64,000 bases of DNA from an uncultured Nitrososphaerales archaeon (GCA_963706445.1 OY970160.1:1632001-1696000), one strand, 5' to 3'; shown: positions 22,363 through 63,677, counted from the first letter of the stretch. Notes: generated by a model from the sequence alone, not told the origin. A program made the numbers and translations.

Positions 22363-22394
22363 GATTTGAACCCACATATGTGGACTCACATCCC
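22363..22394 (+). repeat. Copy 1 of 28-bp 11-6-11 imperfect palindrome (att/dif-like site)
   Basis: GATTTGAACCCACATATGTGGACTCACATCCC is identical over 32 bp to 59523-59554. Confidence 0.9.
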
Positions 22395-22552
22395 CCAGGG
22401 CCCTTATTCATGGACCTAGTTCAAATCACCGAACGGGAATCATCCCTTCTCTACTGGGAACAAATTAGACAGTTTGACTAGCGACTCCGGTCATCTGCGG
22501 AATGTGGCTACATAGACGTGATTTCTTCCTAATGCCTTGTGACAACGAAGGT

Positions 22553-22626
22553 CTCAGGGGCTCGCGAAAGCGAGGAAGGAGCGGAGAGGCCCTCTGACGA
22601 AACAGTCTGTTTTAGCGGAGGGAGCC
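22553..22626 (+). ncRNA. TPP-riboswitch-like structured element (variant or degenerate)
   Basis: CTC-AGGGG...GCGGAGA..CCCT-CTGAC-[GAAAC/GTTTT stem]-AGCGGAGGGAG follows the TPP order P1, P2, P3, (U)GAGA, CUGAY, P5, GCGNAGGGA; J2/4 is missing; lies upstream of an NCS1 permease. Confidence 0.4.
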
Positions 22627-22666
22627 AAGGAACAGTTAAGCGACTTTCTCCTGCAGCCTCTTCAAG

Positions 22667-24011
22667 ATGACGGACAGTCCTGCAAGCGTCGAAAGGCGGG
22701 GGATCGAACACATCCCAGACGAGGAAAGGCACGGCTCGCCTGGCAGGGTCTTCACCCTCTGGTTCGCTGCCAATCTGACCGTCGCTGACTACGTCATCGG
22801 GGTGCTCTGCGTCCAGGCTTTCGGGCTGACCGTCCCCCAGGCCCTCCCCGTGCTGCTTTTGGGCAACCTGCTAGGGGGCCTGCTCCTCGGCCTCTCTGCC
22901 GCCATGGGTCCAAGGTTGGGGTTCCCACAGATGCTTTCGTCTCGCAGTTCATTCGGGAGGCGGGGAAACTACCTCTTCGGGGGGCTGAACTGGATAAGCA
23001 CGGTCGGCTGGTTCACGGTCAACACAATCCTTGGGGTCGAGGCCCTGCAGGCAGTACTGCCGGGGGTCAATTTCTACGGTGCGGCTGCGGCCTTGGTCGC
23101 AATTCAGATCGTCATCGCCGTCTATGGGCACGATTTCATCCACCTGCTGGAGAAAGCGATGGCCGTTGTCCTGGGCCTCCTTTTCATGGGAGTGTTCATC
23201 GTTGCCATTCCTAAGCTTGGAGCCTCCTTCTCGTTTGTCCCGGCTGAAGGTTCCGCGGGTTGGCCAGCACTGGGGGCCGTCGGGGTCGTGCTCGCGACGT
23301 CCTTCTCCTACCTGATGAGCTGGTCCCCCTACGCATCTGACTACAGCAGGTATCTTCCGAGTTCGGTTTCAGGCAGGAGGGTCGCTTCCTTCGCGCTGAT
23401 CGGTGGCGCAGCCGCTTCGTTCGCAGTGGAGGCCATCGGAGCCATGGTTGGAAGCCTCACCCCCAACGTCGGGTTCTTCCAGGCTTTGGACAGTTTCTCG
23501 GGATGGTTCGGGCCCTTCGCAATCATCGCCATCGTCCTCGGCGCCTTGGCAGCTAACGAGTTGAACCTCTACACGAACGCCCTCTCTGCTCTTGTCCTCG
23601 ACATCAGGGTGAAGCGTTGGGTTGCAGTTGTGGCGGGCGGGCTGGTTGGGCTTTCACTGTCAATCATCGGCAGCTCCAATTTCGTGATTAACTATCAGAA
23701 CTTCCTCTTCGTCCTCGACTACTGGATAACGCCATGGCTTGGGATAGTGCTGGTTGACTACTACGTGGTGAGAAGAACGACAGTCGAGATTTCTCTCTTC
23801 CGACTGGAACTTGAAAGCGCTCTCAGTGTACCTGATTGCAGTGTTAGTTTCAGTGCCTTTCATGGTTCCTGCTCTGAATCTCGGATCTCCGTTCGGGTCC
23901 CTCGCGTATCTTTTCGGCGGAGCGGACTTCAGCTACTTCGTCTCGTTCGCCGTCGCGTGTGTTCTGACATACTTGGTTCGCCGACAATCTGCTCGTCGAT
24001 GGGCCAGATAG
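22667..24011 (+). CDS. NCS1 purine-cytosine permease family transporter (CytX/CodB-like; frameshift near 23800)
   Basis: VERRGIEHIPDEERHG, WFAAN, GPRLGFPQM, SWSPYASDYSRYLP, N.Y, LDYWITPW; C-terminal FGGADFSY is in ORF 23811-24011. Confidence 0.9.
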
Positions 24012-24054
24012 TGCGTGAAGGAGCCAGGCTATCGCCTTGCTATTCCTTTTCAGA

Positions 24055-24082
24055 ATTTGTTCCCACACATGTGGACTCACAT
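24055..24082 (+). repeat. Copy 2 of 28-bp 11-6-11 palindromic site (25/28 identical to copy 1)
   Basis: ATTTGTTCCCA-CACATG-TGGACTCACAT. Confidence 0.85.
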
Positions 24083-24363
24083 CATACCCAACGAGTGCGC
24101 AGAGAGCTCCATCGACAACGCTGACTCTTCATTTCCCAGCCCAAAGAGCCTCGAATGAATTAGGGTAGGAAGCTATAGTGGTCGTGCCATAAGAGAACTC
24201 CCTTCCAAGAATTCCTAGCCCAACTACTCGTTTCTAATGCAACCTTTGAAAGTTCGCTTCATGGTACTCTGACCGGATTCTTCATCGCGTTACAGTTCCT
24301 GGCCGATTCCTTAGGGACAAGTCTTTTATTCAAAAAAGCCGTCCAAAAAATTAGGGAACCAGT

Positions 24364-25626
24364 TTGGTGAGGCTGTACGAGTTTCAGGGGAAGCAGCTGC
24401 TGAAGACAGCCAACATCTCCATCCCCAAAGGCGGAGTTGCAGGTACGCCCGAAGAAGCGAGGAAGGTCGCTGAGGGAATCGGCAAGGCTGTGGTGATCAA
24501 GGCACAGATCTGGAAGACTGGGCGCTTCAAAGCCGGCGGCATCAAGTTCGCCAACACCCCCGATGAGGCTGAGGAGATGGCTCGTGATCTGATTGGCAGT
24601 GAAATCAGCGGAACCAAAGTGAAGCAGGTGCTGGTTGAGGAAAAGTTGGAGATATCAAAGGAATTCTACGCGGGGGTGATTGTCGACAGCTCCAGAGAAG
24701 TACGTGGTCCAGTGGTTATCTTCAGCACTCAGGGGGGCACCGACGTCGAGCAGGTGGCGAAGGAGTCGCCGGGCAAGGTAGGGCGTTTGGGTGTCGACTA
24801 TCTCAAAGGAATCGATTCCAGCGAGGCGGATGGTCTTGTGTCCAGAGCAGAGGTTAACACTCGTGAGAAGGAGCTTCTGAGTTCAATCGTTTCTAGTCTG
24901 TATGGACTTTTCGTCAAATACGAAGCGCGGTCTGCCGAAATCAATCCTCTCGTCCTGACAAAGGATGGAAATGTGTTCGCTGCGGACTGCCGGATAACCG
25001 TCGACGACTCGGCCATATTCCGCCACCCGGAGCTTGGTATCAAAGTGGCGCGAGAGTTCCCAAGGGAACCGACCCCATTGGAGGAGATCGCATATGAGAT
25101 GGAGGTCGGCGATTACAGAGGAAACGCGTTCTTCTCCCAGATGGTTGAGAAGATAGAAGGGCCAGGATATGTCGGATACCATGGTATCGGAGGGGGCGGC
25201 GCGATTCTGGGCGTCGATGCCCTCAACAGAAAGGGGCTGAAGATCGCCAACTATTCCGACTCGAGTGGAGACCCGACTGCATCGAAGGTCTACCGTCTTT
25301 CGAAGGTGATACTGGCGATACCTGGCATTGAGGGTTATCTGCTGGGCGGCTTCATAGCAGCGAATCAAGAACAATGGCACCACGCCCACGGTCTAGTGAA
25401 GGCATTCAGGGAGGAACTTGCTCAGAAGCCGGGCTTCCCTGTGGTTCTCTTGATTTGTGGGAACAAGGAGAAGGAGTCTCACGTCATCCTGAAGGAAGGC
25501 CTGAGAGACCTTCCAATTCGCCTTGAAGTATACGGAAGCGAATATGTGTACAACCCAGACTTCGTAGCAGGAAGAATGAGGGCGCTCGTTGACGAATACA
25601 GGGCTGACAGAGGAGTGCGCCCGTGA
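24364..25626 (+). CDS. Succinyl-CoA synthetase beta-like ATP-grasp subunit (divergent)
   Basis: LYEFQGKQLL, VIKAQ..GRFKAGG, EINPL, AADC..VDDSAIFRH; the canonical GNGAG loop is replaced by GIGGGG. Confidence 0.85.
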   Translation: MVRLYEFQGKQLLKTANISIPKGGVAGTPEEARKVAEGIGKAVVIKAQIWKTGRFKAGGIKFANTPDEAEEMARDLIGSEISGTKVKQVLVEEKLEISKEFYAGVIVDSSREVRGPVVIFSTQGGTDVEQVAKESPGKVGRLGVDYLKGIDSSEADGLVSRAEVNTREKELLSSIVSSLYGLFVKYEARSAEINPLVLTKDGNVFAADCRITVDDSAIFRHPELGIKVAREFPREPTPLEEIAYEMEVGDYRGNAFFSQMVEKIEGPGYVGYHGIGGGGAILGVDALNRKGLKIANYSDSSGDPTASKVYRLSKVILAIPGIEGYLLGGFIAANQEQWHHAHGLVKAFREELAQKPGFPVVLLICGNKEKESHVILKEGLRDLPIRLEVYGSEYVYNPDFVAGRMRALVDEYRADRGVRP

Positions 25627-25934
25627 CCGAGTTCAAGGAAAGAACGATAACCGTGACCATAGACGACAGCGTGTGTGGAGAATGCACGACGAAAGCGTGT
25701 GTGACAGCATGTCGCATCTATGGTCGAGGCATACTGACCCTTAGAGAAGGAAAACCGACGATTTTGCTGACCGCTAGCGAAGCGGCAAGGGCCGGTACTG
25801 AATGTCTGGCGTGCGAACACGAATGCCTTCTAAGGGGGCTGCATGCGCTGAAAATCAATGTCCCCATGCCTGAGCTGGACAAGTTCAAGGCGTCACTGAA
25901 CACCAGAGGGGAGGAAAGACGGGAATACTCATAG
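25623..25934 (+). CDS. Ferredoxin-like protein between the SCS-like subunits
   Basis: CGECTTKACVTAC and CLACEHEC Cys clusters; GTGA overlap with the beta subunit. Confidence 0.75.
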   Translation: MTEFKERTITVTIDDSVCGECTTKACVTACRIYGRGILTLREGKPTILLTASEAARAGTECLACEHECLLRGLHALKINVPMPELDKFKASLNTRGEERREYS

Positions 25935-26821
25935 ACGAGAAGACCAGCGTAATCGTCCAGGGTATCACTGGCAGGTCTGGAGAGGCCTACGCCAGATACA
26001 TGAAGGAATACGGAACAAACGTCGTGGGAGGAATATCTCCAGGACGTGGCGGCGCCATCGTCGCGGGCATACCAGTGTATGAATCGGTCAAGGAGGCAGT
26101 CGAGAAGCATGGACCGATCGACGCAGCAGTCACCTTCGTTCCGGCTCCGGCGCTGAAGGATGCGGTGCTGGAGGACATCGAAGCTGGAATCAAGCTAATA
26201 GTCTCTCCAGTCGAAAGGGTCCCTCTCCACGACATAATGGTCATGGTGGCCTCGGCGAAGCGGAAGGGCGTACGAATCATAGGGCCGGGAACCATAGGTG
26301 TCATTACTCCTAGCAAGGCAGTGCTAGGCTGGGTCGGAAGCTCGGCTGAAAGGGCAAAGGAGATCTTCCAACCAGGACCGGTGGGAATATTGTCGAGGAG
26401 CGGGGGCCAATCGGGGACCTTGCCCTGGATCATAAAGAACGCGGGTCACGGTTGCAGCACTCTAGTCCACGAGGGGACGGAGCCAATCATAGGCACGTCG
26501 TTCGGTGACCTGCTGCCTTTCTTCGAGGAAGACGAGCAGACGAAGGTTGTCGCGATGTTTGGGGAGCTCGGAGGAACCACGGAAGAAGAGGCGGCCATGG
26601 AGATTGAGAAGGGGCACTTCACTAAGCCCTTGGTCGCGTACATCGCTGGTGCCTGGGCGCCTGAAGGCATGAGATTCTCCCACGCTAGCAGTATTATCGA
26701 ACATGGCAAAGGGTCTGCGAAGAGCAAGATAGACGCCCTTAGGAACGCCGGCGCTCATGTGGTTGAGAAACCGGCCGAAATCCCCACCATGATTTCAGAG
26801 ATCCTAGTGAAGACGCAATAG
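25919..26821 (+). CDS. sucD: Succinyl-CoA synthetase alpha-like CoA-binding subunit
   Basis: (M)GILIDEKTSVIVQGITG read from an ACG at 25919, IIGPG, SRSGG, GELGG, phospho-His in FSHASS. Confidence 0.88.
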   Translation, partial: TGILIDEKTSVIVQGITGRSGEAYARYMKEYGTNVVGGISPGRGGAIVAGIPVYESVKEAVEKHGPIDAAVTFVPAPALKDAVLEDIEAGIKLIVSPVERVPLHDIMVMVASAKRKGVRIIGPGTIGVITPSKAVLGWVGSSAERAKEIFQPGPVGILSRSGGQSGTLPWIIKNAGHGCSTLVHEGTEPIIGTSFGDLLPFFEEDEQTKVVAMFGELGGTTEEEAAMEIEKGHFTKPLVAYIAGAWAPEGMRFSHASSIIEHGKGSAKSKIDALRNAGAHVVEKPAEIPTMISEILVKTQ

Positions 26822-26839
26822 TGTCCCAGGTAGGTGCGC

Positions 26840-27400
26840 CTACTGCGCTGGCATTCTGGCTGGACTATTGATAAGCCCAAAGCCCCAATCTATGGCCTGC
26901 GAGTTCTTCTCAACTGTCCTCTTGGGGACTGTTTCGCTCATTGCTTTGACGAGGGCGTCCTTGGTGCATATCCCGCTGAGTTGAACGAAGGCTCCCAGCA
27001 TGATCATATTCGCAAGCATTGGTTCCTGAAGCTCCTCGGAGGCTATTTTCGTTGCTGGGATCCCGTAGGTCGCAACCTTGTTTTGGTCCGGTTTCATCGT
27101 CACCATCGAGGAGTCGATAATCAGGGTACCGTTGCTTCGCAGTTTGGTTACAAACTGGTCGGCAGCCTGCTGAGACATGGCGACGAGATAATCCTCCTGT
27201 AAGATTTCGGGGTAGTCGATCTTGGAGTCGGAGACGACCAGGTCGCAATGGCAGGAGCCCCCTCTGGACTCGGGCCCGTATGATTGGGTCAGGGAAGCGT
27301 TCTTCCTGTCATGAAGAACGATGGCCTTGCCCAATACGGTCCCCGCAAGGATGACACCTTGTCCGCCGAAGCCAGCGAACCTCACCTCAATCCTTTGCAA
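26840..27400 (-). CDS. korC: 2-oxoglutarate/2-oxoacid:ferredoxin oxidoreductase gamma subunit
   Basis: FAGFGGQG, SYGPESRGG, NMIMLGA. Confidence 0.92.
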   Translation of the reverse strand: MQRIEVRFAGFGGQGVILAGTVLGKAIVLHDRKNASLTQSYGPESRGGSCHCDLVVSDSKIDYPEILQEDYLVAMSQQAADQFVTKLRSNGTLIIDSSMVTMKPDQNKVATYGIPATKIASEELQEPMLANMIMLGAFVQLSGICTKDALVKAMSETVPKRTVEKNSQAIDWGFGLINSPARMPAQ

Positions 27401-27404
27401 GCCG

Positions 27405-28229
27405 TCACACCCCCGAGCTGTGTCGCGCGGCGAATTCGTGGAGCGTTGCGCTGTAGCCCTTCACATTCCTGTCAACGAGCTTACCAATGACATACTTCCC
27501 CCTCAGGGCCTCCTCAGTCATCCCCTGCGCTCGTTCCTTTGTCACTGAGTTCTTCAGGAACCCCCTCATCATCTCGGCCCCGTCGCCAAGCCGGTTCCTT
27601 CTGCCGAAGTAGGTCGGACACTGGGAGACGACCTCAACGTAGGCGAAGGCCTGCTTCTGGATTGCCTCTTTGATCGAGTTTACAATCTGGCGGTGGTGTG
27701 CGGAGGTCCACCTTGCTACATACCCCGCCCCACATGCCTCGACAAGTCTGCAGAGGTCGAATGGAGGCTCCATAGAACCCTCGACTGATGTCATTGTTAT
27801 GCCGCCCAATGGTGTGGTTGGAGAGTACTGTCCCCCCGTCATTCCGTAGTTGAAATTGTTGATGCAGATCGCTGTAAGCTCAACGTTCCGCCTCGCGGTC
27901 TGTATGAGGTGGTTTCCGCCGATTGCAGAGGTCTCGCCGTCGCCCATGTGGCAGATGACAGTCAGCTCGGGATTGGCCAGCTTTATTCCAGTGGCAAAGC
28001 CGAGAGGCCTGCCATGTAGGGTGTGCATAGAGTCTTTGTACCAGTAGGTGCACATCCTGCCGCTGCATCCGCTTCCTCCAACCCAGACAACCTTGTCGTG
28101 GTCAAGGCCTAGCTCGTTGATCGCCTGAACGGTGTAGTACCATACCTGCCCTATCCCGCACCCCGGACACCATAAGTTCGGAGAACCCGGCCTGTCGAGC
28201 CTGAAGTACTCTAGAGCCGGATGTCTCAT
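27405..28229 (-). CDS. korB: 2-oxoacid:ferredoxin oxidoreductase beta subunit (TPP-binding)
   Basis: WCPGCG, TLHGR, GDG...GGNH, NNFNYGMTGGQ.SPT, SQCPT. Confidence 0.93.
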   Translation of the reverse strand: MRHPALEYFRLDRPGSPNLWCPGCGIGQVWYYTVQAINELGLDHDKVVWVGGSGCSGRMCTYWYKDSMHTLHGRPLGFATGIKLANPELTVICHMGDGETSAIGGNHLIQTARRNVELTAICINNFNYGMTGGQYSPTTPLGGITMTSVEGSMEPPFDLCRLVEACGAGYVARWTSAHHRQIVNSIKEAIQKQAFAYVEVVSQCPTYFGRRNRLGDGAEMMRGFLKNSVTKERAQGMTEEALRGKYVIGKLVDRNVKGYSATLHEFAARHSSGV

Positions 28230-29383
28230 GCTCCCAGCCCCTTCAAAGCGTTAGCAACCTCCAAAGGCGTGTGTGCCTCTACGCCTGGTTTGGAGAGCAG
28301 GCTCACCTTGGCCGCCCCTTCGGCTGCCCTTTGAACCTCCCTCACCACCTTGCCCATGTTCATCTCTGCCACGAGAATTGTCTTGACTCCTTCCGCGATT
28401 TCTTTGATCTTCCTGTCAGGAAACGGCCAGATTGTAATCAGCCTCACATAGCCGACCTTAACCCCCTCGCGCCTTGCATCCTGTACCGCTCTGTGAACCG
28501 ACCTGGCGGGCACTCCATACGAGAGCACAGCGACGTCGGCGTCTTCGAGGTATTCAGTCTCGATTCTAGCGATCTCGTCGGCCTTCTTCTCGACCTTGTT
28601 CCAGAGCCTCGTGACCAGCTGGTGCTGGACTTGCATACTGGTTGACGGCGACCCCGACTCGTTCCTTGCGAAGGATGAGATCGGGAGGGCATATCCATCT
28701 CCGAACGAAGGCATTGCTGGAACGTCCGTGTCGGAAGCAGCCCTGAATGGGACGAACTTATCGGGTGGGACATCAGGTTTCTTCCTGTTCAGAACGTGGA
28801 TCTTCTCCGCTGGTGGAATCTCGACCTTTTCCATCATGTGCCCGACGAGCTCATCTGCGAGGATGAAAGTGGGGACGCGGTACTGCTCCGAGAGGTTGAA
28901 TGCCTCTACGGTCAAGTCGAACATCTCCTGAGGTGAGTCGGGGGCTAGGGCGATAATCGAGTAGTCCGAGTTACTTCCGTATCTTACCTGATAGATGTCG
29001 CCCTGCATGCTCTTGGTGGCGATTCCGGTACCTGGCCCTGCCCTCTGCACGTCGACAATCACGCAAGGAGTTTCAGTCATGGCAGCGTAGCCTATGTTCT
29101 CCTGCATCAGGCTTATCCCGTTTCCCGAGGTCGCAGTCATGGCCTTCTTGCCAGCACAGGAAGCCCCAATCACTATGGCCAGAGAGTCAAGCTCGTCGGC
29201 GCCCTGAACGAAGATCCCTCCAACACCGAAGAGTCGCCTGGAGAGCACCTCCGAAATTTCTGTGGCAGGCGAGATTGGATAGCCAGCGAAGAGGCCGCAC
29301 CCCGCAGCCAAAGCCCCTTCTGCGCAGGCCTCATCTCCGTTGATGAAGTGTAGACCGCTCCTGACTCTTTCTTGCAGCTTCAT
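28226..29383 (-). CDS. korA: 2-oxoacid:ferredoxin oxidoreductase alpha subunit
   Basis: GYPISPATE, DE, ATSG.G..LMQE, QRAGPGTG, EMNMG. Confidence 0.93.
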   Translation of the reverse strand: MKLQERVRSGLHFINGDEACAEGALAAGCGLFAGYPISPATEISEVLSRRLFGVGGIFVQGADELDSLAIVIGASCAGKKAMTATSGNGISLMQENIGYAAMTETPCVIVDVQRAGPGTGIATKSMQGDIYQVRYGSNSDYSIIALAPDSPQEMFDLTVEAFNLSEQYRVPTFILADELVGHMMEKVEIPPAEKIHVLNRKKPDVPPDKFVPFRAASDTDVPAMPSFGDGYALPISSFARNESGSPSTSMQVQHQLVTRLWNKVEKKADEIARIETEYLEDADVAVLSYGVPARSVHRAVQDARREGVKVGYVRLITIWPFPDRKIKEIAEGVKTILVAEMNMGKVVREVQRAAEGAAKVSLLSKPGVEAHTPLEVANALKGLGA

Positions 29384-29631
29384 CCACTCCTCTTTTCAAC
29401 AGCAATGGCAAAATCCGGACAGAATTCGACGCATGTGTTGCAGCCTGTGCATTTGTCCATGCTCAGGACGATTGCTTCATGAGCGCCTCTCGCATTCAGC
29501 TGCGGCGAACTCGCTAATACTTTGAATGGGCAGAAGTCGATACAAATTCCACAACCTGCGCAGAATTTATCATCGACATAGATAGCGTATTTCGAACCAA
29601 CGTACTGTCTCATGGCGAGCGCCGAAGCCAA
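29380..29631 (-). CDS. korD: 2x[4Fe-4S] ferredoxin delta subunit
   Basis: CAGCGICIDFCP and CTGCNTCVEFCP. Confidence 0.9.
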   Translation of the reverse strand: MASALAMRQYVGSKYAIYVDDKFCAGCGICIDFCPFKVLASSPQLNARGAHEAIVLSMDKCTGCNTCVEFCPDFAIAVEKRSG

Positions 29632-30996: not shown

Positions 30997-32318
30997 CTAC
31001 TGACTTCTCCCACCGGGAAGGTCTCCCGTTCTGCGCCTTTCAGGCCTTATTACAGACAGGATTATTTTCTGCAAGACATCAGGACCTATGGTACTCCTCC
31101 TCACTCTCCGGGTGAGTCTATTGATGATTTCGGTGTACTCATCGTCCGAGGCAGAGAGACCCATCTTCTCGATCATCGCGTCGACAGACCCGGACCTTCC
31201 TCGCCTTAACCTCCCTTCCGCCCATTCCAATCTGAACTCGCGGCCCATGACGTCAGGACGGATATTGTCCCAGGCGAACCAGATCCCCCGCAGGACACTT
31301 GTTAAGTGGCTGTCGAGTTGGTGTCTGTAGATGTTTGTTCCGACCACAGGTTTGTTCGGATGAACCTTGACTCCTGAGAACCGTTCGACCATCTTGGACG
31401 CCCCTCCGAGTTTGGTTATGTCGATCCCGCATTCCACATCGTATTGCACAGTCGAGCACAGTGGCCAGCTCCTCCAGGGCCGTAATACCAGCGTTGTGGC
31501 CAAGCCCGTTTATCGCGACATCGACAACCTCAGCGCCCGCTTTGATGCCCGCCGTGGCATTTGCCATCGACAGACCGAACTCGTTGTGGCAGTGAAGGGC
31601 GACCTTGGTCTGATGGCTGACATTGTCTCTGACAAGCCTTACGGCAAAATCGAATAGTTCGGGCGTCGCGTTCCCCGTCGGGTCTGCCACATAGACGCGA
31701 TCTATTTTCAGGCCTGACAGTTGCTGAAGTAATTGGACTAGAAGATCAAAGCGGACTCTCAACATGTCGACAAGGAGAAAGCCAACCTTGGCACCCCTCG
31801 AATTCGCGTAGTCGACGCATTCCGTAACTCTTGCCGGGACCTGCTCGCTTGTCAACCAAGGCGTCGTAGGCATCAACGACTGCGACATCCAGAATACAAA
31901 ATCAACTATGTCTACGCCAGCGTCAATGCTCCTGTCTATCTCGTCCCTCCATTCGTTACCCCGGGTGTAGCCCCGGTTAATGCGACCCCAGGGTTAGCTT
32001 GTAACCCCTCTTCTTGATGGATTTGGCAAATTCGTACTGTTCGTTTATGGCCCCTGCGTAGCCGACCTCGGTCTCGGTGACGCCTATTTCTTCCAGTTTG
32101 TCGAGGATTTTGAACTTGGCCGCCTTGGTGTAGAGCACGTCTGGAGTGTCCTCTCCCTCTCTGATTGTTTGGTCCATGAGGATGACTCGTTTGGGCAGGT
32201 CAAGCCGCGACCTGACCAGCGACCAAGAAGCGAGGTTACTCTGCCACCATTTCTTGCCAGGTCCCCAACGCATCTCCTTGTCGAGTTCCTCGTCTTCGAC
32301 CGGAGATGATCGTCGCAT
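30997..32318 (-). CDS. DRE-TIM acyl-CoA condensing enzyme (isopropylmalate/homocitrate/citramalate synthase family), split by 2 frameshifts
   Basis: DQTIREGED, EVG, ADPTGNATP, HCHNEFGL..AN, NGLG, NKPVVG across three ORFs. Confidence 0.8.
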
Positions 32319-33313: not shown

Positions 33314-33380
33314 TTTGACCTCAATTTCCTGCCCGACGCGCCCATTGATTTAAACGATGACAGTGAGAGAGTCCCTGTCG

Positions 33381-34192
33381 ATGGCGCGAAGAGTGCCAGC
33401 GAGGGATGATCAAGAGATACGGCGGTCGTCTGAGGTGAATAGATTCCATGGCAAGGTGGCGTTAGTCACTGGGAGTAGTAGAGGCATAGGAAGGGCCTGC
33501 GCAGTAGAGCTCGCCAGACAGGGAGCGAACGTTGCAGTGAACTACAGGGCAGATCAACATCAGGCAGAGAAGACCGTCAAGGAGATTGAAAGTCTTGACA
33601 GAGTCTACGGGCCCATCCAGGCAGACACGTCGAGCTCGTCTCAGGTGGCATTGATGGTGGAGGCAGTCGAGAGGGACTTCGGTGGCATAGACATCCTGGT
33701 CAACAATGCGGGGATGCTCAAGAGGACTCCTTTCCTGGAAATAAGCGAAAGCAAGGATCGGACGAGGTCCTAAATACGGACCTGAAAGGATACTTTTTGG
33801 TTGGACAGGCGGTGGCAAGAGTCATGGCTCGCCGGAGTGGAGGCGTCATCGTGAACATTTCTTCCAACGCCGAGGAAAAGCCGTCACAGAACCTCGCCCA
33901 TTACTCTGTAGCGAGAGCCGGAGTCGGCATGCTGACCAAGAGCATGGGCCTCGAGCTGGCACCCAATAAGATCAGGGTCGTCGCAGTGGCCCCCGGCCTC
34001 ATCGAGACTGACATAAACAGGAAGGACTTTTCGGACCCATCTTTCCTCAAACGGAGGCTAGATAGAATCCCATTGAAGGTCGTCGGCAAGCCCGAGGACG
34101 TTGCGAAGATGGTCGCGTTCGTCGCTTCAGACGAGGCCAGACTGGCGACGGGCCATACGATGTTCATAGACGCAGGTTCGAACATCTCGTAG
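33381..34192 (+). CDS. SDR family oxidoreductase (frameshift ~33755)
   Basis: VTGSSRGIG, NNAG, VNISS, YSVAR (YxxxK with K to R), PGLIET. Confidence 0.87.
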
Positions 34193-36836: not shown

Positions 36837-36935
36837 CAGATCCCAACGTGCCCATGCGAGCTGCTGGTCTCGATTCTTAGCAGGCTGTCTGGCGAGCGTG
36901 CAAACTTACAGTGCTTAATGGAGCGATGAGGACCA

Positions 36936-38084
36936 TTACTTCTTGATCCTGATTGCTTCGACAAGGTCGTCTACCGACTCTACCCCGAGCCCAGGCGACT
37001 GCGGTAGCTTGGCCTTTCCGTCTTTGATGACGACCCCGCCCTCTCATTGGATCCTCGGCAAACCAGTAGTGGCATTCGGCCGCAAGCGGATAGGGTTGCC
37101 TCACGATGGCGGCAAGATGCGTGATGGCCGCCTCCCCCAGCCTTGTGTAGAGCCCATCTATGGTCACCCCTATTCCCGCCGATTCAGCCATGTGAATCAG
37201 GTTGACTGCCTCGAACAAACCGCCCACCCTTGCGAGCTTGATGACTATCCTGTCAGCGGCTTCTCGCTGGATGACTTGTAGCAGAGCTTGGGAGCCGGTT
37301 ATGGTTTCGTCGAGCACCAAGGGGATAGTCAACTCCCGCGCTATCCGACTGAGGCCGCTGATGTCCCAGTAAGAGATAGGCTGTTCTATTGCAATAGGTT
37401 GCCGTACTTCTCGAACCCTCTCAGCAGAGAGATGACCCTGTCGGCGTTCCTCCAGCCCTGGTTCGCATCGGCGTCCACGGGGATGGTGTCCGGAATCGAG
37501 CTCAGCACCTGCTCCAGCTTCGCCATTTCTACTTTCGCAGTCTCTAGGGTCGAACCTCGAGACTCGATTTCCAAGGCGATCTTGACCTTCAAACCACCGT
37601 AGCCGCGTTTGACATAGTCAACTGCAGATTTCGCCATATCATCCGGAGCAGTGAGGTACAATTCGCCTTTGAGGTCGAAGGTGTCCCTTAGTTCGCCGCC
37701 TAGCAGTTTGTATACGGGCACGCCGTAGGATTTTGCAGACAGATCGTACAGAGCCATGTCGACTGCGCTCCTAGCTGACTCGGACGCCGGCCCACCACGG
37801 CCCACGTGGGTTGTCATCAGATTGTGGGCTTTGACGATGTTTGTGGGGTCCTCTCCCTTGAGAAGACCTTCGTAGAGCTTCAAAAGGCTAAGGTCATGTT
37901 CGAGCGTGTTGCCGGTATACCAAGGCATTACGTGAGATTCGCCGTAACCGACAAGGCCGTTCGAGGTATGGACCTTAATCAGCACCTCCTGAATTCCCGC
38001 CGGCCAAAAGAAGTAGTTCTTCCCCCAACCCTCTTTTGAGGAACTCAGAGCTATTGGAATTGTTTCGATTTCAGTGATTCGCAA
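36936..38084 (-). CDS. Enolase superfamily, MLE subgroup (HpbD/dipeptide epimerase-like), 2 frameshifts
   Basis: GYGE, DMALYDL..K....PVY.LLGG, KVK, DANQGW, EQP, LDE, IKLARVGG, PGLGVE. Confidence 0.85.
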
Positions 38085-38190
38085 ATTGTATAGATTTTCT
38101 CGCCTGGTTCTTTTAAGGTTGCTGAGTTTTCCCATCCAAACGTCAATGCTTTAATCACTATGGCTGACGCTGTTCGGTCATTGGGATCTG

Positions 38191-44544: not shown

Positions 44545-45455
44545 ATGAAGATGCGTGTTGACGGGATAAACGTTGGAACGGTAACGCCATTTAAGAGAGA
44601 CAACACCGTTGATTACGAAGGCATAAGGCAGAATCTTGACTTCGTTCTTGACGCCGGTGTGCACACGATTGAACCTGTGTCGAGTACGGGTGAAGGATCG
44701 CTTCTAACACCGGACGAGTATAAGGAAGTCGTGAAGGCCACCGTTGATTACGTCAATGGCAGAGTTCCTGTTTCTTCAGGTGCTCCCGGAGCGTCGCCCG
44801 AGACGATCATAAGGAACCTAAAGCTTGTGAAAGATCTAGGTTCGGATGGCGGTTACCTTTCAACTCCAGCATATCTGCTTCCCACGCAAAAGGGGATGCT
44901 AGCTCACTTCGGCAAGATTTTCGATTCGGTGGACATGCCAATCACCGTTTACAATGCCATCCATAGGTCGGGAGTTGAGCTCCTTCGGAGTCAGTGGCCA
45001 AGCTCGCAGAAGAGCACTCGAACTTTGTCGCCTACAAAGAGCAATCACTCTTCAGAATCTTGCAGGTGAAGAACCTTGTAGGGAATAGACTGCAGTTGAT
45101 TGGTGAAGATTGGGTCTGGCTGCCCTGCATGTCCATTGGTGTGAATGGAGTCCAATCTGTCGTCGGAAGCATCTTCCCGAGGTTAATGGTCGAGATGTAC
45201 AATGATTTCAAGAATGGGAACGTTTCGAAAGCTCTCCAGACACAAATCCAAATCACCCCATTGATGGAACCGCTCGGGGTCGGAATAGGTGGGAACGAGC
45301 CTAACCCATCGCCTCTCAAGGCAATATTGAACATGCTGGGAAGACCTGCAGGCGACCCCCGGCTGCCACTCGTTCCTGCTTCGGAAGAACTGAAGGCACT
45401 GCTCAAAACGCGCCTGATTCAAGTCGATCCAACCCTGAAGAGCAAACTGAAGTAA
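44545..45455 (+). CDS. DHDPS/NAL family aldolase (frameshift ~44985)
   Basis: VTPF, SSTGE, TP.Y, VYN, Schiff-base Lys in AYKE, RLPL. Confidence 0.87.
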
Positions 45456-50617: not shown

Positions 50618-50619
50618 TG

Positions 50620-51456: not shown

Positions 51457-51461
51457 CCCAT

Positions 51462-53411: not shown

Positions 53412-53449
53412 GGTGTCCGAACACGATTGTGGCCGGAGAAGCTATGATC

Positions 53450-54805
53450 CTAGCCCGTGCTATTTGTGAGGGTGATTTGCTGTGTTGAAGCGTCCCAGTA
53501 TCCGATTGGAACCCATGCCAGCGTCCCGTTCACCATTTGGACACCGAAGTCTCCGTAGTTTGTTGCTGTCCTGTCTCCGTTAGCATTCATTTGGACCCAA
53601 CCTGTTACTCCGAAGTAGTTGTCTGCGACTGTGCTGAAGCTAGCTTGGACGCACTGACCGCTATTCGACCCGCATGCTAGGATAGCGAGCGCCGCCAGCC
53701 AGATTGAGTCGTACGCAGCCAGGCCGCTGAAGATTCCGGGGACTGACCCGGTTGCAGTTACGAAACGATTGTAGAATTGTGTGTACTTGGTTGAAGCTGC
53801 TGGCGCTGGCTGGAAGCCCGAAAGCTTCACCGTCAAGGCATTGTTACCAGCGGTAGTCAACAGGTCTGTGCTTGAGACTTGGTTGGTGAACCATGGCACT
53901 GTCAGTAGTGACCCGAAGGTGGATGCTTGGGATAGTGCGACTCCGATTTCAGCGTCACCAAGTGCCAAGATCGCAACATGGCTATTTCCGTACGTCGCTT
54001 GGGCTGCGCTCAGGTCGCTCTGCATCTGTCCGAGTTGGCTCGTGAAGTCGTAGCTTCCAGTGCTGATTGGAGTGTATTGTACCACGTCATAGGTACCACC
54101 GTCTGTAGTATATGGCGCCTCGAACGAGGCAGCTAGGCCAGTTCCGAATGGATCGTTCCTAACGAGAAGGACTGCGTGTGTGTATCCGGCCTGCGTAAGC
54201 GCAGATGCGAATGGAACCCCTTCAACATTGTCGGGGGGAACAATTCTGAACAGATCCCCGAGGGTTCTGTTGTCGATTGAAGTCCCTGTAGACGCTGTGC
54301 TAATCAGGACCAAGTTATTGGCTGTCGCGTATGAGAGTACGTTTGTTGCAATTCCAGTGGTCATCAAACCGACGTAGATCTTGATGCCCTGTGCGGCCAT
54401 GTTCTGAATGTCAGTGAGGGCCGTCGCAGGATCCGTCGCGTCGTCTTGGATGTTGAGTGCGAAACGGGTTGACGATCCCTGAGTGGCTAGCCATGCGTTG
54501 ACATCGCTCAGGGCCATGTTAACCGCTGATTTGGACAGCTGGCCATAGTCGGCCTGGTCGCCAGTCAAGTCGAGGATGGCCCCAATGGTAACTGTCCCCA
54601 ATGATGATCCCGCACCCGTCACTGTAGTTGTTATGGTGCTCGTCGCGCCTCCAATCGTGGTAGTGATGGTGCTTCCTCCTCCGACTGTAGTTGTAATAGT
54701 ACTAGTTGAGGTAGTTGTCGTACTAGGGAAGGCTGCATAGACAACGGCTGCACCGATGAGAAGACCGATGATTACTGAGACACCTATTGTGACTCCTGTT
54801 TTCAT
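53450..54805 (-). CDS. LivJ/LivK-like substrate-binding protein, membrane-anchored
   Basis: N-terminal TM, Thr-rich repeats, IGAILDLTG, FRIVPPD, AYDS, GVTG....NGDR. Confidence 0.9.
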   Translation of the reverse strand: MKTGVTIGVSVIIGLLIGAAVVYAAFPSTTTTSTSTITTTVGGGSTITTTIGGATSTITTTVTGAGSSLGTVTIGAILDLTGDQADYGQLSKSAVNMALSDVNAWLATQGSSTRFALNIQDDATDPATALTDIQNMAAQGIKIYVGLMTTGIATNVLSYATANNLVLISTASTGTSIDNRTLGDLFRIVPPDNVEGVPFASALTQAGYTHAVLLVRNDPFGTGLAASFEAPYTTDGGTYDVVQYTPISTGSYDFTSQLGQMQSDLSAAQATYGNSHVAILALGDAEIGVALSQASTFGSLLTVPWFTNQVSSTDLLTTAGNNALTVKLSGFQPAPAASTKYTQFYNRFVTATGSVPGIFSGLAAYDSIWLAALAILACGSNSGQCVQASFSTVADNYFGVTGWVQMNANGDRTATNYGDFGVQMVNGTLAWVPIGYWDASTQQITLTNSTG

Positions 54806-54960
54806 CTTCGGCAGATTCTCGCTCTGACTAGGTCTTAAGGATTAGTCCTAATTCCTCGCGTTCCCGCGTTCTGAAGGGGCCAACCCATCTTCGTTCTGCG
54901 ACTCCCGCCCCCCAGATGCGGCGGCGGCTGGTTGAGGCTCTGGCTCCACGTTCAGGCGTG

Positions 54961-56163
54961 CTACACAGCGTACTTCTTGAGCGCATCCTCGTTTATTGTT
55001 ACGCCGAGTCCAGGCCCTCTTGGGACGTCGATCCGCCCTGTCCGGTCCATTTCGAAAGGTTCGTTCAGCAGGTGGGCCTTGAGCGTCGATAGTTCGGTGA
55101 AATCGCTCGCGTAGATTGCGTTCCTCGTCGATGCGGCGATGTGGGCTTTTGCAGCTATGCAGACGGCGACCTCCCCCTCCGCGCCCAGCATACAACCCAT
55201 GCCTACTGCGTCTGCAACCGCCGCGACCTTCTTGGCCTGGAGGATCCCTCCGACTTTCGGGACCTTCATGTTGATCACGTCTGCAGCCTTCCTCCGGCTG
55301 AGCTCCATGACGTCGTAGACTGTGAATGCAGCCTCGTCGGCGTTAATGGCCACTCCTGTTTGGCTTCGGATTTCCGCCATCCCGTCCAAGTTCCAGGCGG
55401 GGATTGGTTGTTCGAGGTACTCGAAGTTCAGCCCGCTCAGGTACTTGCATGCTCGCTTCGACTCGGCCACGGTCCAATGGGTGTTCGGGTCCACCCTGAG
55501 CTTGACTTCGTCGCCAACCGCATCCCTGATCGCCTTGATTCTTCGAAGGTCCTCTTCAATACCCCCATGTCCCGCCTTGATTTTGACGACGGTGAGGCCT
55601 CTCCGCACCCAGTCAGCCGCCTCCTCTGCCATCTCCTCGGGGCTCCGCATGCCTATCTCAATGGCAATTGGGATCTTCTCGAAGACCAAGCCACCTATGA
55701 GGTTGTGGACGGGCTGATTGACGGCCTTCCCCATGATGTCGTACAGCGCCATGTCAACCCCGGTCTTCGCGCAGGGCGTTCGAGTGCTGGCTGCCTCCAT
55801 CAGGTCGTAGATGTACTGTATCCGGAATGGGTCTTTTCCAATCAGGAGGGGGGTGAAGATATTTCGAATGGTGGAGTTGACCGAGTCGAGCGACTCCCCA
55901 TAGAGTTCGGGATAGTTAGCGTGGGCCTCTCCATACCCGACTATTTTCTCGTCAGTCTCAATCCGTACGATGACAGCTCTGTACACTTTGAACTGACCGT
56001 ACGCGTCTCTGTAACTTATTGTGGGAACAGAGACTGGCGTTGTCTCGACTTTGGTGATTTTCAAAATTCTAGAACCTGTATTGCCCTCGGGTCCGAGGCG
56101 TATATTTACGTCGTTTCTTTCCGGAGAAGGGGACACCAGAGTCGAAAACGACTCGCTAGCCAA
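54961..56163 (-). CDS. Enolase superfamily, MLE subgroup (muconate cycloisomerase/dipeptide epimerase-like)
   Basis: KIK, VDPN, EQP, ADE, MKVPK.GG, PGLGV. Confidence 0.9.
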   Translation of the reverse strand: MASESFSTLVSPSPERNDVNIRLGPEGNTGSRILKITKVETTPVSVPTISYRDAYGQFKVYRAVIVRIETDEKIVGYGEAHANYPELYGESLDSVNSTIRNIFTPLLIGKDPFRIQYIYDLMEAASTRTPCAKTGVDMALYDIMGKAVNQPVHNLIGGLVFEKIPIAIEIGMRSPEEMAEEAADWVRRGLTVVKIKAGHGGIEEDLRRIKAIRDAVGDEVKLRVDPNTHWTVAESKRACKYLSGLNFEYLEQPIPAWNLDGMAEIRSQTGVAINADEAAFTVYDVMELSRRKAADVINMKVPKVGGILQAKKVAAVADAVGMGCMLGAEGEVAVCIAAKAHIAASTRNAIYASDFTELSTLKAHLLNEPFEMDRTGRIDVPRGPGLGVTINEDALKKYAV

Positions 56164-56256
56164 GGAGTTGAATCACGACACGAGCCGGCGTTATCTCTGC
56201 TCGGTCGGGGAGACACGGTCACTTCATGGGGGGAGCGTCTTGAAAGTTGAAGTATC

Positions 56257-57087
56257 GTGGCCTCCGACCAAGCGGATGAGGTAGGAGCCTACCAGGCGAG
56301 GTGCTTGAAGGGGTATACCCATTTCCTGACTCCGAATGGCAGGGGGTCGATTCTTTCGGAAGGGCCGTGGTACTACGGCGTAAACTACCTTGCAGCCTAT
56401 TTCGTGGGCGACAAAAGCAAGATGTCAGAACTCCTTCCCCCTCCGCTAAGGGTTGGGGACGGCACGGCACTGGCATATGTGGCTGAATTCGTTTCAGCAG
56501 GCGCTCCAGACCTCGAGAATGACTACCTGGACCCGGCCCAGACTGTCTACAACGAAGCCGCAGTCGGCGTTTTGTGCACATACAAAGAGCGTAAAGGCGT
56601 CTATTTCCCTTTCATGTGGGTCGACAGGGACTGGTCAATGATACGAGGCTGGCTGCTCGGGTATCCGAAGAAGATAGCGGAAGACATTCAGATGACGAGG
56701 ACCCATCCGTTGAACCGTCTTGCGGCGTCCTTCGGGGAAGGCATGGGTCTTATGGGGTATTGCACACGCCATGGGAAGAGCCTTGTCGAGATTGGTCTGA
56801 CGATCAAAAAGCGGGGGGACAAGAAGGATGTATTCGACCTGGGAGCGGCCTACGGCCTGAGGCATTTCCCTGGCGTAGGGAAGAAGGGGACGCCGGTCAA
56901 CGAGGTCGTTGAAATCGTCAAGAGCGGATTCAGGATTGGCAAGGAGGTGTGGGTGGGGGACGTGGCATTGAAGTTTGGGCATTCGCTGAACGAAGAGTTG
57001 GGGTTCTTTCAGCCCGTTAGGTTACTCTATGGCTGTAGCTATAGCACGGGCTTCGCTAACTTGGCAGTCAAGGTCCTCGCATCTTAG
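56257..57087 (+). CDS. Acetoacetate decarboxylase-like superfamily protein
   Basis: LLPPPL, YNEA, WVD, RGW..GYPKK (Schiff-base Lys motif). Confidence 0.85.
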   Translation: MASDQADEVGAYQARCLKGYTHFLTPNGRGSILSEGPWYYGVNYLAAYFVGDKSKMSELLPPPLRVGDGTALAYVAEFVSAGAPDLENDYLDPAQTVYNEAAVGVLCTYKERKGVYFPFMWVDRDWSMIRGWLLGYPKKIAEDIQMTRTHPLNRLAASFGEGMGLMGYCTRHGKSLVEIGLTIKKRGDKKDVFDLGAAYGLRHFPGVGKKGTPVNEVVEIVKSGFRIGKEVWVGDVALKFGHSLNEELGFFQPVRLLYGCSYSTGFANLAVKVLAS

Positions 57088-57104
57088 GTCGCGGGCATTC
57101 AAGC

Positions 57105-58370
57105 ATGTTACGAATTACGCCGGCCTACTCCGATGTCCTGAGGAGAATTTCGAACGCGGACGTCTCATTTGTCCTTGGGAGGCTTGTGAAGATTTCCAGC
57201 CAGTGCTACAAGAAGGAAGAAGGGAAATGTTGTCTGGCAGTAAGAGATATCCTCGAGGGCTGGGGAATCAGGTCCAAGCTTCAACCTGTTGACAAGCCCT
57301 CTTACAGAAGGTACAATGTGATAGCCGCTCTGAAGGGAATCGAGGAGAAGCCGAGGCTCTTGTTCAATTGCCACGTGGATACTGTCCCCACCGAAGGCAT
57401 GGAATTCAATCCCCTAAGAGGAATAGTGAAACATGGAAGGGTCTACGGGCGGGGAGCGAGCGACGATAAGTCAGGAATTGCTACAGGCATGGTTTCGCTG
57501 AAAGCATTGTCTGAGGCCGGTTTCCCGCTGAAGGGAAATTTTATCTTCGCAGCAGTCTCGGACGAGAACGGGCAGGCGCTCGGTGTGAAAACCATGCTGA
57601 AGCGCGGCCTGACAGCGGACTGGGGAATCGTGGCGGAGCCCACCGCCAATCGCGTCGTGATAGCTCATAGGGGCAGGATTGACCTGGTGGTGACAGTGAG
57701 GGGAAAAGCCGGGCATTCGGGGTCGCCAGGATCTGGGGTCAACGCCATTGTCAAGATGGCATCACTCATCGGAACCATCGAGAAGGAGCTTCCGAGATAC
57801 CTCGCAAGGAAGAGTTTCGCAAGGATGCCTGAAATGAGACCGAGTTTCAACGTCTCGGTGATTCAGGGCGGCCTAGTGCAGAACATCATCCCAAGCGAAT
57901 GCAAGGTCATCATTGACAGAAGGATTATCCCCGGGGAGACGCATGAGGAAGCGTTCAACGAAGTGAAGGAAATTGTTCGTGAGGCGACCGAGAAGGACAG
58001 AGACCTTCGTGCCGAGGTCAAGGTTTTTGAAAAGCCTGACCAGTTTCCCAACTGCCCCGAGCACACTCCGATCAAACCGATGCCCCCTTACGAAGGAAGG
58101 AAGATGCCTTTGGATCTGGCGCCAAACGCAAGAATCGCCGAAGTGGCCAGAGCAGCTTGCGAGTCAGTCCTGAGAAAAGACAACGGATTCTCGATGTACC
58201 CCGGTCATACCGCAGCTGAGGTTCTAACCCATACGGGCGGAATCCCAAGCATAGTCCTCGGCCCCGGGGAGCCTGACAAGTCCTTTGCGCCGGACGAATC
58301 TGTGAGAATTCGGGATGTAACCCGAGGGGCGAAAATTGTTTCGCTCATTGCCATGAAGCTGCTTTCCTGA
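57105..58370 (+). CDS. M20 DapE/ArgE-like hydrolase lacking one metal site
   Basis: NCHVDT, GRGASDDK, DEN (for DEE), AEPT, H.G.P..GVNAI, GPG....F.PDE (H to F). Confidence 0.85.
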   Translation: MLRITPAYSDVLRRISNADVSFVLGRLVKISSQCYKKEEGKCCLAVRDILEGWGIRSKLQPVDKPSYRRYNVIAALKGIEEKPRLLFNCHVDTVPTEGMEFNPLRGIVKHGRVYGRGASDDKSGIATGMVSLKALSEAGFPLKGNFIFAAVSDENGQALGVKTMLKRGLTADWGIVAEPTANRVVIAHRGRIDLVVTVRGKAGHSGSPGSGVNAIVKMASLIGTIEKELPRYLARKSFARMPEMRPSFNVSVIQGGLVQNIIPSECKVIIDRRIIPGETHEEAFNEVKEIVREATEKDRDLRAEVKVFEKPDQFPNCPEHTPIKPMPPYEGRKMPLDLAPNARIAEVARAACESVLRKDNGFSMYPGHTAAEVLTHTGGIPSIVLGPGEPDKSFAPDESVRIRDVTRGAKIVSLIAMKLLS

Positions 58371-58546
58371 ACAGCGCAGCCCACTGAGAATGAAAAACAG
58401 TCGGCAGCAGAACCGCCGAATGATCACGCCATCACGTTGGGGCCACTCAATGAGTGAAGATAGTCTCGGTTTTCACAGTTCGGCAATCGTCTAGTGAACC
58501 ATCGACAATTCACCAGGTTCTTAAGCGAAGCAGATAAACAAAGATC

Positions 58547-58681
58547 ATGGCTTCGGCGCTCCTCGCGTCGAGGAAGGTCATTCGTTGCATCTGGTGTGAT
58601 GCCCTAGTCGACGAGACAGATATGACTCAGGTTGCATATCAGACCTGTCGGAACTGTCTCTTTCCTGTCCCCACTGATTAG
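58547..58681 (+). CDS. 44-aa CxxC...CxxC zinc-finger microprotein (not in ORF track)
   Basis: MASALLASRKVIRCIWCDALVDETDMTQVAYQTCRNCLFPVPTD; TTAAG box at 58521, 26 nt before the ATG. Confidence 0.55.
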   Translation: MASALLASRKVIRCIWCDALVDETDMTQVAYQTCRNCLFPVPTD

Positions 58682-58920
58682 TTCCAGTCAATCCTTCCCA
58701 CGGTACGAATTGACTTCTGTTGACTGGCATGAACTTCGGCATTGAATTGGCGTGCCGTTGGGGTTACCAGCAAACTAAAACTAGTTCCTGTCCAACGGGC
58801 GGGAATCGAGAAATGGGAAGAGGAAACTGTGAGGGAGTCTCTTTGCAGATTCGAACTTGAGCGTCGTCGACCTACCATTGCTGAAGCATCTTTTTAGTTG
58901 ATTTCGAGAGAATCAAGCTC

Positions 58921-59421
58921 ATGCGGGTAGTCGATCTTTACGAGTATTCGTCCAGGGTTAGGCGAAGGTTTGCCGACAAGCTGGCGGAACTGGATTGGAC
59001 GGAGGTCGAAAGGAACAGGGAAGCGAGCTACTACAGCATGAAGAATATCCTGATTCACATCATAGACAACGAAGACTGGATAGTCAACTGGGTGATCAAG
59101 AACAAGTCAAGAGAGTACAGGAGGGAGAGGAAGTCCGACCAATACCTGAACATGAAGATGATTATGGATCATCTGGCCGAAGTGGAGGCTAGGACGAGGA
59201 ACTACCTGTCGAAAGCCGACGATGCGGAACTGTCCATGCGAGTCGATTTCGTGCTCTCGTCAGGGGAATCGTTTGAAATGACTGCCGAGGAGTCTCTTTT
59301 CCAGTCCTTCACAGAACAACTCTATCACATTGGAGAACTGATCGCGCTTCTATGGCAGGATAACATCGAACCCCCCAAGATGCAGTGGTTCTACAATCGA
59401 GACGGGCTTACCTCAGTCTGA
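58921..59421 (+). CDS. DinB/YfiT-like family protein
   Basis: SMKNILIHI...E..W and QSFTEQLYHIGEL motifs of the four-helix DinB fold. Confidence 0.82.
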   Translation: MRVVDLYEYSSRVRRRFADKLAELDWTEVERNREASYYSMKNILIHIIDNEDWIVNWVIKNKSREYRRERKSDQYLNMKMIMDHLAEVEARTRNYLSKADDAELSMRVDFVLSSGESFEMTAEESLFQSFTEQLYHIGELIALLWQDNIEPPKMQWFYNRDGLTSV

Positions 59422-59522
59422 TTCCTTCTCGGCAGCAACCCCCGCCTTTCGAGCCCTTTCGCCAAGACTATACTATTCGTCGATAATCAAAGGAATATTC
59501 GTCATTTGTCTTGAGATGAGTA

Positions 59523-59554
59523 GATTTGAACCCACATATGTGGACTCACATCCC
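59523..59554 (+). repeat. Copy 3 of the palindromic site (identical to copy 1 over 32 bp)
   Basis: GATTTGAACCCACATATGTGGACTCACATCCC between the convergent DinB and MFS genes. Confidence 0.9.
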
Positions 59555-63675: not shown

Positions 63676-63677
63676 AC

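Follow-up and report, generated by a model that had tools for sequence, protein, structure and literature searches.

Palindromic sites beside a tRNA-His gene of a Nitrososphaerales archaeon: probable junctions of a tandem array of integrative elements

How did three direct copies of a short palindromic site come to lie, within 37 kb, among the metabolic and transport genes of an uncultured Nitrososphaerales archaeon? The sites are carried by a stretch of 64,000 nt (GCA_963706445.1 OY970160.1:1632001-1696000), referred to here as the window, whose positions are counted from its first nucleotide and which is part of a genome (G000) available as a single 1.818-Mb contig. The original prediction, drawn from the window itself, was that these are core sites of the tyrosine recombinase type, with an 11-6-11 architecture, which partition the region into discrete cargo modules. 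Junctions of the tyrosine recombinase type delimiting such modules are supported by the results described below, and the identity of the junctions is revised. In the reading which we consider probable, the palindromes are attachment (att)-type junctions belonging to a family of integrative elements which target the 3′ part of tRNA-His genes, and the locus is a tandem array of these elements.

A pattern search of the window, which allowed up to three mismatches, located the 28-mers on the + strand at 22364-22391, 24055-24082 and 59524-59551 (no match is expected, as judged from 100 shuffles). Copies 1 and 3 share an identical stretch of 32 nt (22363-22394 and 59523-59554), and copy 2 matches them at 25 of 28 positions and differs at three. 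The geometry is that of two inverted 11-nt arms, matching at 8 of 11 positions, on either side of a 6-nt spacer. The positions, common orientation, 32-bp identity and arm symmetry given in the original prediction were thus all recovered, and the resemblance of copy 3 to copy 1 extends 27 nt further leftward (84% over 58 nt). The sites are also intergenic, as had been proposed: + strand genes begin 276 nt after copy 1 and 282 nt after copy 2, and copy 3 lies between convergent genes encoding a DinB-like protein (+) and a major facilitator superfamily (MFS) protein (-). Copy 2 overlaps a mechanically called open reading frame (ORF) only because of an apparent frameshift near 23.8 kb in the NCS1 permease gene, the real frame of which stops at 24011.

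Genome-wide, with the same tolerance of three mismatches, the 28-mer is present only as the three copies of the window. A diverged fourth palindrome (site 4; genome 1557894-1557921) has five mismatches and belongs to a subfamily with a CCGCGGC acceptor. Site 4 is found 1.9 kb downstream of a DinB-like gene (genome 1555410-1555960) which shares 88% DNA identity with the DinB-like gene at 58921-59421 of the window, the latter ending 100 nt before copy 3. A dispersed repeat resembling repetitive extragenic palindromic (REP) sequences was considered and rejected, since a genome-wide scan for exact 16-mer repeats returned one tandem repeat and nothing else. A protein-coding repeat was also rejected: both strands are open across the repeat and neither has a consistent ORF beyond it. 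No exact copy of the site core was found in viral contigs.

The composition of the sites relates them to a tRNA-His locus lying to the left of the window. The features concerned are the following:

Genome 1617456-1617522, + strand: native tRNA-His(GTG) gene, truncated, at a distance of 36.8 kb from copy 1 and of about 14.5 kb from window position 1, to the left of both
Genome 1617618-1617716, - strand: replacement tRNA-His gene, intact and intron-bearing, about 100 nt beyond the truncated gene and inside the island
Genome 1617772-1619040: tyrosine integrase of 422 amino acids, matching Pfam Phage_integrase and a PHROG integrase
Window 22272-22283, + strand: GTTTGAGCCTAC, an exact inverse of the GTAGGCTCAAAC found at genome 1617538, 16 nt beyond the truncated tRNA-His gene; no occurrence expected in 20 kb
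Window 22362-22405, + strand: full att unit of copy 1, composed of an inverted T-arm box GGATTTGAACCCAC, the spacer ATAT, a degenerate T-arm GTGGACTCACATCCC and the acceptor CCAGGGCC
Window 22406-22427, + strand: linker CTTATTCATGGACCTAG and direct T-arm-like box GTTCAAATC, just right of copy 1
Window 22455-22466, + strand: TGGGAACAAATT, which inverts exactly the variant left arm carried by copy 2; the window has two matches and none is expected
Window 24055-24082, + strand: copy 2, right end of module B, with a diverged acceptor part (CATCATACCCAACGAG)
Window 59523-59554, + strand: copy 3, right end of module C, with a diverged acceptor part (CCCACCAAGAGTC)
Window 59658-59677, + strand: displaced genuine tRNA-His 3′ end, with CAAATCCCACCCAGGGCC at 59660-59677

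The native tRNA-His gene has a perfect T-arm at its end and then lacks the 3′ acceptor strand CCAGGGCC. It is taken as the native locus because its promoter-side flank is conserved with that of the congeneric genome G005. The right arm of the palindrome and its flank read as a degenerate T-arm followed by CCAGGGCC, which is exactly the strand missing from the truncated gene and also the 3′ acceptor strand of the tRNA-His type present in congeners, and the left arm is the reverse complement of the 5′ half of the T-arm. Each site follows one plan, an inverted T-arm-like box, a 4-nt spacer, a degenerate T-arm and a tRNA-His 3′ acceptor, and an anchored alignment recovers this plan across more than ten loci. 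The spacer differs between subfamilies (ATAT, GTAA, GCAC or GTTT; GATC in the tRNA itself). Downstream of a common ACATC the sites carry differing versions of the T-stem and acceptor (CCAGGGCC, CGCGGCC, CAAGGGCC and others); intact tRNA-His genes of the congeners terminate in GTGGGTTCAAATCCCACCCAGGGCC. Such variation would fit target-derived sequence acquired from the tRNA-His genes of different hosts. The T-loop mimic also occurs as mosaic variants (CTCACAT, CTCGCAT, CTCGAAT and CTCAAAT), which we read as suggesting strand exchange in or just after the T-loop.

Two further pairs of sequences point in the same direction. GTTTGAGCCTAC, shortly before copy 1, and GTAGGCTCAAAC, shortly after the truncated tRNA-His gene, form an exact inverted 12-mer end pair of the first island (island A). 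TGGGAACAAATT and the left arm of copy 2, which share the same AA/TT variant, similarly constitute the exact inverted 12-mer end pair of the 1.7-kb module B. In addition, the stretch CTTATTCATGGACCTAG/GTTCAAATC to the right of copy 1 is homologous to the DNA which follows the truncated tRNA-His gene, TTATTTACTACCTAG-GTAGGCTCAAAC (a resemblance judged by eye and unscored). Because of this resemblance of linker and box, copy 1 has the appearance of an entire attP-type junction joining two stacked elements.

The matching arms of the palindrome could alternatively reflect a folded single strand of DNA or RNA, in which the imperfect hairpin itself is the functional unit, for example a folded single-stranded DNA recombination site or a small structured RNA. 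Pairing is indeed kept by changes on both arms (CCCAC/GTGGA against CCTAC/GTAGA in G066), T-G wobble-type pairs occur in G068, G065 and site 4, the ends of module B carry their matched AA/TT variant, and the palindrome is conserved beyond its flanks. Two boxes copied from the T-arm and bound by a single protein would, however, also be expected to match each other. Rfam, with E values up to 1, returned no family at six site-bearing loci, including the 22392-22666 gap before the permease gene, and ARAGORN returned no tRNA for the window, for the 22 site-bearing metagenome stretches described below or for most sites of the relatives. Its only call over the motif, a minus-strand tRNA-Pro in G007 and G047 with a 132-nt intron spanning the motif, is implausible and was treated as spurious. 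We regard the hairpin as the functional unit as very unlikely.

The integrase is placed as expected for the enzyme of a tRNA-targeting element, about 55 nt from the replacement tRNA-His gene, 250 nt from the truncated one and 36 kb left of copy 1. The genome includes three PF00589 genes, none of them in the window. The array had originally been described as integrase-less, which holds for modules B and C and fails for the array as a whole, given the tyrosine integrase at its head. Of the two types of enzyme then proposed to act on the sites, a tRNA-targeting integrase is the likely one. A query with this integrase found no relative among genome contigs of other taxa, and a sequence search of the PDB gave no match; among 54 congeneric genomes, homologues are present in 33. 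The intact tRNA-His gene beside it is in opposite orientation to the truncated one, and the island seems to replace the tRNA that it broke. A split or permuted tRNA-His, in which the truncated gene and the acceptor of copy 1 would be joined in trans, was rejected since an intact, intron-bearing tRNA-His gene adjoins and, as a second ground, since ordinary insertions in congeners carry the same site architecture. The integrase is accompanied by a small conserved ORF (C-terminal ...EALAKFEVFDRLL...; genome 1619420-1619530, and 1309-1419 of G007 locus L014), which thus occurs in two distantly related elements differing in gene order and orientation.

At the other end of the array, CAAATCCCACCCAGGGCC is an exact 18-nt match to the tRNA-His 3′ end of the congeners (the end of the T-loop, the T-stem and the acceptor), placed 107 nt to the right of copy 3. 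If it were fused to the truncated tRNA-His gene, a complete T-arm and acceptor would be restored, and positions 59658-59677 mark the outer right edge of the array. Base composition is in keeping with these limits. Module C has a GC content of 54.2%, compared with a genome mean of 58.1% (standard deviation 1.5, 35-kb windows), and is the lowest 35-kb window genome-wide; its tetranucleotide distance is at the 99th percentile, and neither outer flank is unusual. A cumulative GC deficit sets in near the tRNA-His locus and ends at window position 59876, after which GC content is about 59-60%. There is no GC step at 24.1 kb, because the DNA leftward to the tRNA-His gene is GC-poor island as well. 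The lower GC content of the interior noted originally is thereby upheld, with a boundary at copy 3, and both the size of the drop and its left edge are corrected. The proposed extent of 37 kb is likewise too short: DNA left of copy 1 is also island, and the array measures about 74 kb from the tRNA-His gene.

Synteny gives a similar picture. Contig C21 of G060 is colinear with G000 as far as the tRNA-His gene, over about 10 kb of its own sequence and about 18 kb of that of G000, and again from window position 61377; the DNA between these two points is unrelated and measures 34 kb (G060) and 76 kb (G000). Synteny is not preserved across the region in relatives, an outcome in line with the original proposal. 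The right flank is:

Window 61353-64000, + strand: conserved chromosome, with genes for a DegT-type aminotransferase and a GFO/IDH/MocA oxidoreductase, colinear with G060

The same arrangement recurs in other genomes. G068 and G065 each carry a tRNA-His gene, an integrase (56% identity in both) and, 8.5 kb and 25 kb further on respectively, the inverted T-arm-like box, 4 nt, a T-arm and an acceptor; in both, an exact inverse of the distal box is also found just after the tRNA gene. The closest integrase homologue (64% identity) directly follows a tRNA-His gene of the CCAGGGCC type in contig C91 of G005, which does not include the distal site. The motif itself was found with at most one mismatch in G005 (contig C89), G007 and G047, and with two mismatches in G045. 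In contig C83 of G005 an intact tRNA-His gene is followed by 22 kb of DNA without an integrase gene, then by the motif and a second half-motif; the cargo comprises amino-acid kinase, amidohydrolase, PrpD, PrpF, ABC transporter, aminotransferase and oxidoreductase genes. This is an independent, integrase-less metabolic module located between tRNA-His and the motif. G007 also contains two loci (190-380 of L073; 14520-14710 of L074, corresponding to contig C26) where an inverted 25-nt fragment of a CCAGGGCC-type tRNA-His 3′ end lies about 70 nt upstream of an intact tRNA-His gene with a different acceptor (CCAAGGCC).

Further comparisons indicate movement of modules, with the site as the joint. 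Positions 4182-21719 of the window, in island A, share 88-92% identity with G045, against 65-74% for the remaining G045 matches within the 100 kb that were compared, and the matching block is bracketed in G045 by the motif on one side and by a second att-like site on the other, which points to transfer of a module between species. The exact 23-mer core of the site was found in 22 metagenome stretches, in nearly all of which the left flank differs, as mostly does the right flank. Contigs L095 and L096 have a left flank of 781 bp in common (99%) and diverge directly after ACATC, and L093 and L096 have the site and the right flank in common and differ from about 5 nt before the site. A single left partner thus occurs with different right partners and a single right partner with different left ones, the change of partner falling exactly at the site. 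A 1.1-kb segment, located to the right of the site in metagenome contig L091 (640-1714), is found to the left and inverted in L103 (2420-3496), which hints at an inversion around the palindromic site.

These joints bear directly on the proposal that the palindromes are stand-alone core sites of the lox/FRT/dif type, at which a recombinase monomer would sit on each 11-nt arm and strands would be exchanged across the 6-nt spacer, the enzyme (XerA or another) being supplied in trans. The geometry and the 8/11 arm matches recall such sites, and archaeal dif sites share that geometry (PMC8371274). The 22 metagenome contexts conserve about 35-45 nt only, with no arm sequence further left, and modules B and C are without a recombinase. 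The recombinant joints, as located by comparison of contigs and not by cleavage mapping, nevertheless fall after ACATC, past the palindrome, and about 5 nt before it, and not in the central spacer. The spacer, where strand exchange usually requires identity, varies among subfamilies and differs from the tRNA. The right arm is a T-arm mimic continued by a tRNA-His acceptor, and those tRNA-His insertions of congeners that start with an integrase have the site at their far end. Finally, dif is a single site and pdif modules are bounded by oppositely oriented sites, whereas here three direct copies are present within 37 kb beside tRNA-His. We therefore judge the 11-6-11 geometry to be coincidental, the palindrome resulting from an inverted T-arm copy facing T-arm-like sequence, and stand-alone core sites to be highly improbable.

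A transcription-factor operator common to the permease gene and the SucC-like operon would account for a palindrome at similar distances upstream of two + strand genes. An operator of this kind is scarcely compatible with a genome-wide total of three copies, one of them between convergent genes, with the unrelated DNA which lies downstream of the motif elsewhere (an integrase gene, the 3′ end of a gene or another half-site), or with tRNA-derived sequence that marks recombinant joints, and we consider it extremely improbable. The scan for the 28-mer as a regulon, suggested with the original prediction, likewise revealed no gene consistently downstream across genomes.

Under the att-junction reading, each copy would be the right end of one element or module, formed of an element-borne inverted T-arm box, a 4-nt spacer, a T-arm mimic and a target-derived T-stem and acceptor. 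Serial integration at one tRNA gene would have produced a stacked array of about 74 kb, which may be read from left to right as the truncated native tRNA-His gene, island A with the replacement tRNA-His gene and the integrase, copy 1, the 1.7-kb permease module, copy 2, the 35.5-kb metabolic module, copy 3 and the displaced tRNA-His 3′ end. Strand exchange would take place in or just after the T-loop mimic, the integrase presumably binds the T-arm-like boxes, and the order of integration given here is likewise a proposal. Modules B and C may be decayed elements, or units mobile only through the integrase of a neighbour, as are bacterial cis-mobilizable elements (CIMEs).

Several observations weigh against this reading. 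No congener was found in which an empty tRNA-His site is directly joined to the right-flank genes, and synteny with G060 restarts only beyond the MFS gene (59711-61192), which follows the right att edge. Gene order in the family is also not fixed, as the related integrase of G007 is found right of the motif and oppositely oriented. In G000 every copy is damaged in the region where exchange presumably takes place. CCAGGGCC is absent from the truncated tRNA, one nucleotide is deleted from copy 1, and the acceptor parts of copies 2 and 3 have diverged, which implies that the array may be frozen. The palindrome is moreover identical in 22 unrelated contexts, beyond the conservation of ordinary att flanks, a comparison in which the search pattern itself selected for identity; this suggests a role which a plain att model does not explain.

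The array comprises, besides the sites, three blocks of cargo:

Window 1-22361: distal part of island A, which begins at the truncated tRNA-His gene 14.5 kb left of the window
Window 22667-24011, + strand: cargo of module B (1.7 kb), an NCS1-family permease gene apparently frameshifted near 23.8 kb
Window 24083-59522: module C, 35.4 kb, metabolic and transport genes only, several of them split

In island A the integrase comes first, followed by several ORFs without a family match, a winged-helix protein, a LOR-domain protein and then an ABC transporter and metabolic genes. The first frame of the module B permease covers profile positions 2-382 of 440 of Pfam Transp_cyt_pur. Module C includes genes for a SucCD-like ligase, a 2-oxoacid:ferredoxin oxidoreductase, an aminotransferase, a CoA-transferase III, an aldehyde dehydrogenase, two ornithine cyclodeaminases, an OTCase-like protein, a branched-chain amino-acid ABC transporter, enolase-superfamily proteins, M20 peptidases and the DinB-like protein. 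Pfam and integrase searches identified no integrase or transfer genes in modules B and C. No orthologous DNA of module C was detected in the 54 congeners, whose matches are at the level of paralogues (64-75%) and to generic genes. Its aldehyde dehydrogenase matched bacteria only (metagenome-assembled genomes of Thermoleophilaceae, 43-49%), too distantly for a donor to be named. A gene was counted as split when its two ORFs match adjoining portions of a single Pfam family or when it carries on in a different frame; at least five such genes are apparent in modules B and C (the NCS1 permease, 22667-24011; HMGL-like, 31253-32318; SDR, 33357-34192; MR_MLE of the enolase superfamily, 36877-38135; DHDPS-like, 44545-45455) and could reflect decay of island cargo or assembly error.

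In many respects the locus belongs to a known kind of system. As in other integrative elements of tRNA genes, an integrase lies beside the tRNA, a tRNA 3′ part is repeated directly at the distal end, colinear flanks enclose unrelated DNA of divergent composition, with synteny and GC content breaking at the edges, and several units are stacked at one tRNA gene with the integrase lost from older ones. Arrays of integrated elements and loss of integrase genes have been described in archaea (PMC8371274, PMC6563490), the arrays arising by re-use of one site (PMC6563490). In contrast to such elements, the target tRNA is not rebuilt here and an island-borne tRNA-His in opposite orientation compensates for it; a conserved inverted T-arm copy makes the site a 28-nt palindrome, with matched, module-specific inverted boxes; and the integrase-less modules are large and almost purely metabolic. 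These are the unusual traits of the system.

Tandem ssrA islands of Dehalococcoides, bounded by repeats of the 3′ end of a small-RNA gene and many of them without an integration module, have been discussed as cis-mobilizable elements (PMC3146451). They resemble the present array in their position downstream of a small-RNA gene, their 3′-end direct repeats, insertion in or near the T-loop, the retention of att sites by many islands without an integration module and their metabolic cargo. They differ in using a serine recombinase and a 20-bp repeat without a palindrome, where the array described here has a tyrosine integrase, a tRNA-His target and an archaeal host. Modules B and C have att sites related to those of their integrase-bearing neighbour and have no integrase or transfer genes of their own; by analogy, the array would have the arrangement of a bacterial CIME beside its integrative element.

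Xer/dif and pdif modules share with the array the 11-6-11 inverted repeats and the bounding, by short sites, of modules without their own recombinase, and differ from it in that the sites here include a T-arm copy, are direct repeats beside tRNA-His, have break points outside the spacer and are headed by an integrase of another type. Integron attI/attC arrays are likewise headed by a single integrase and carry variable cargo, with a co-oriented imperfect palindrome at each unit's distal end; here, in contrast, the units are of 1.7-37 kb, contain several genes with their own promoters and have sequence-conserved sites, and the integrase lies inside the first unit.

An archaeon from a setting of peat type appears to gain large catabolic and transport blocks by repeated site-specific insertion at one tRNA gene, each block being tagged by a short conserved site. 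Since this site is easily searched, related modules can be found in metagenomes, where exchange of partners has already been seen. Integrase-less modules which keep their sites could serve to probe bacterial-style accretion and the mobilization of passive islands in archaea, and the conserved inverted T-arm copy provides a concrete substrate for studies of target recognition by this family of integrases.

A bolder view, which we regard as unlikely, is that the palindrome is a portable recombination signal whose folded arms rebuild the T-arm duplex, allowing one tRNA-His integrase to capture, stack and reshuffle integrase-less metabolic modules; the locus would then be an archaeal integron-like or accretion platform, of which a second array of about ten sites, at 747-788 kb of the same genome, would be another example. 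That second array (genome 747790-788700) consists of about ten co-oriented units of about 44 nt (GTTGGGGCGCC..CTAGA..CCCGGCCAGGGCGCC), spaced 1-10 kb apart. Each unit looks like an arm followed by a tRNA-like 3′ end, and the region includes several of the lowest-GC 35-kb windows.

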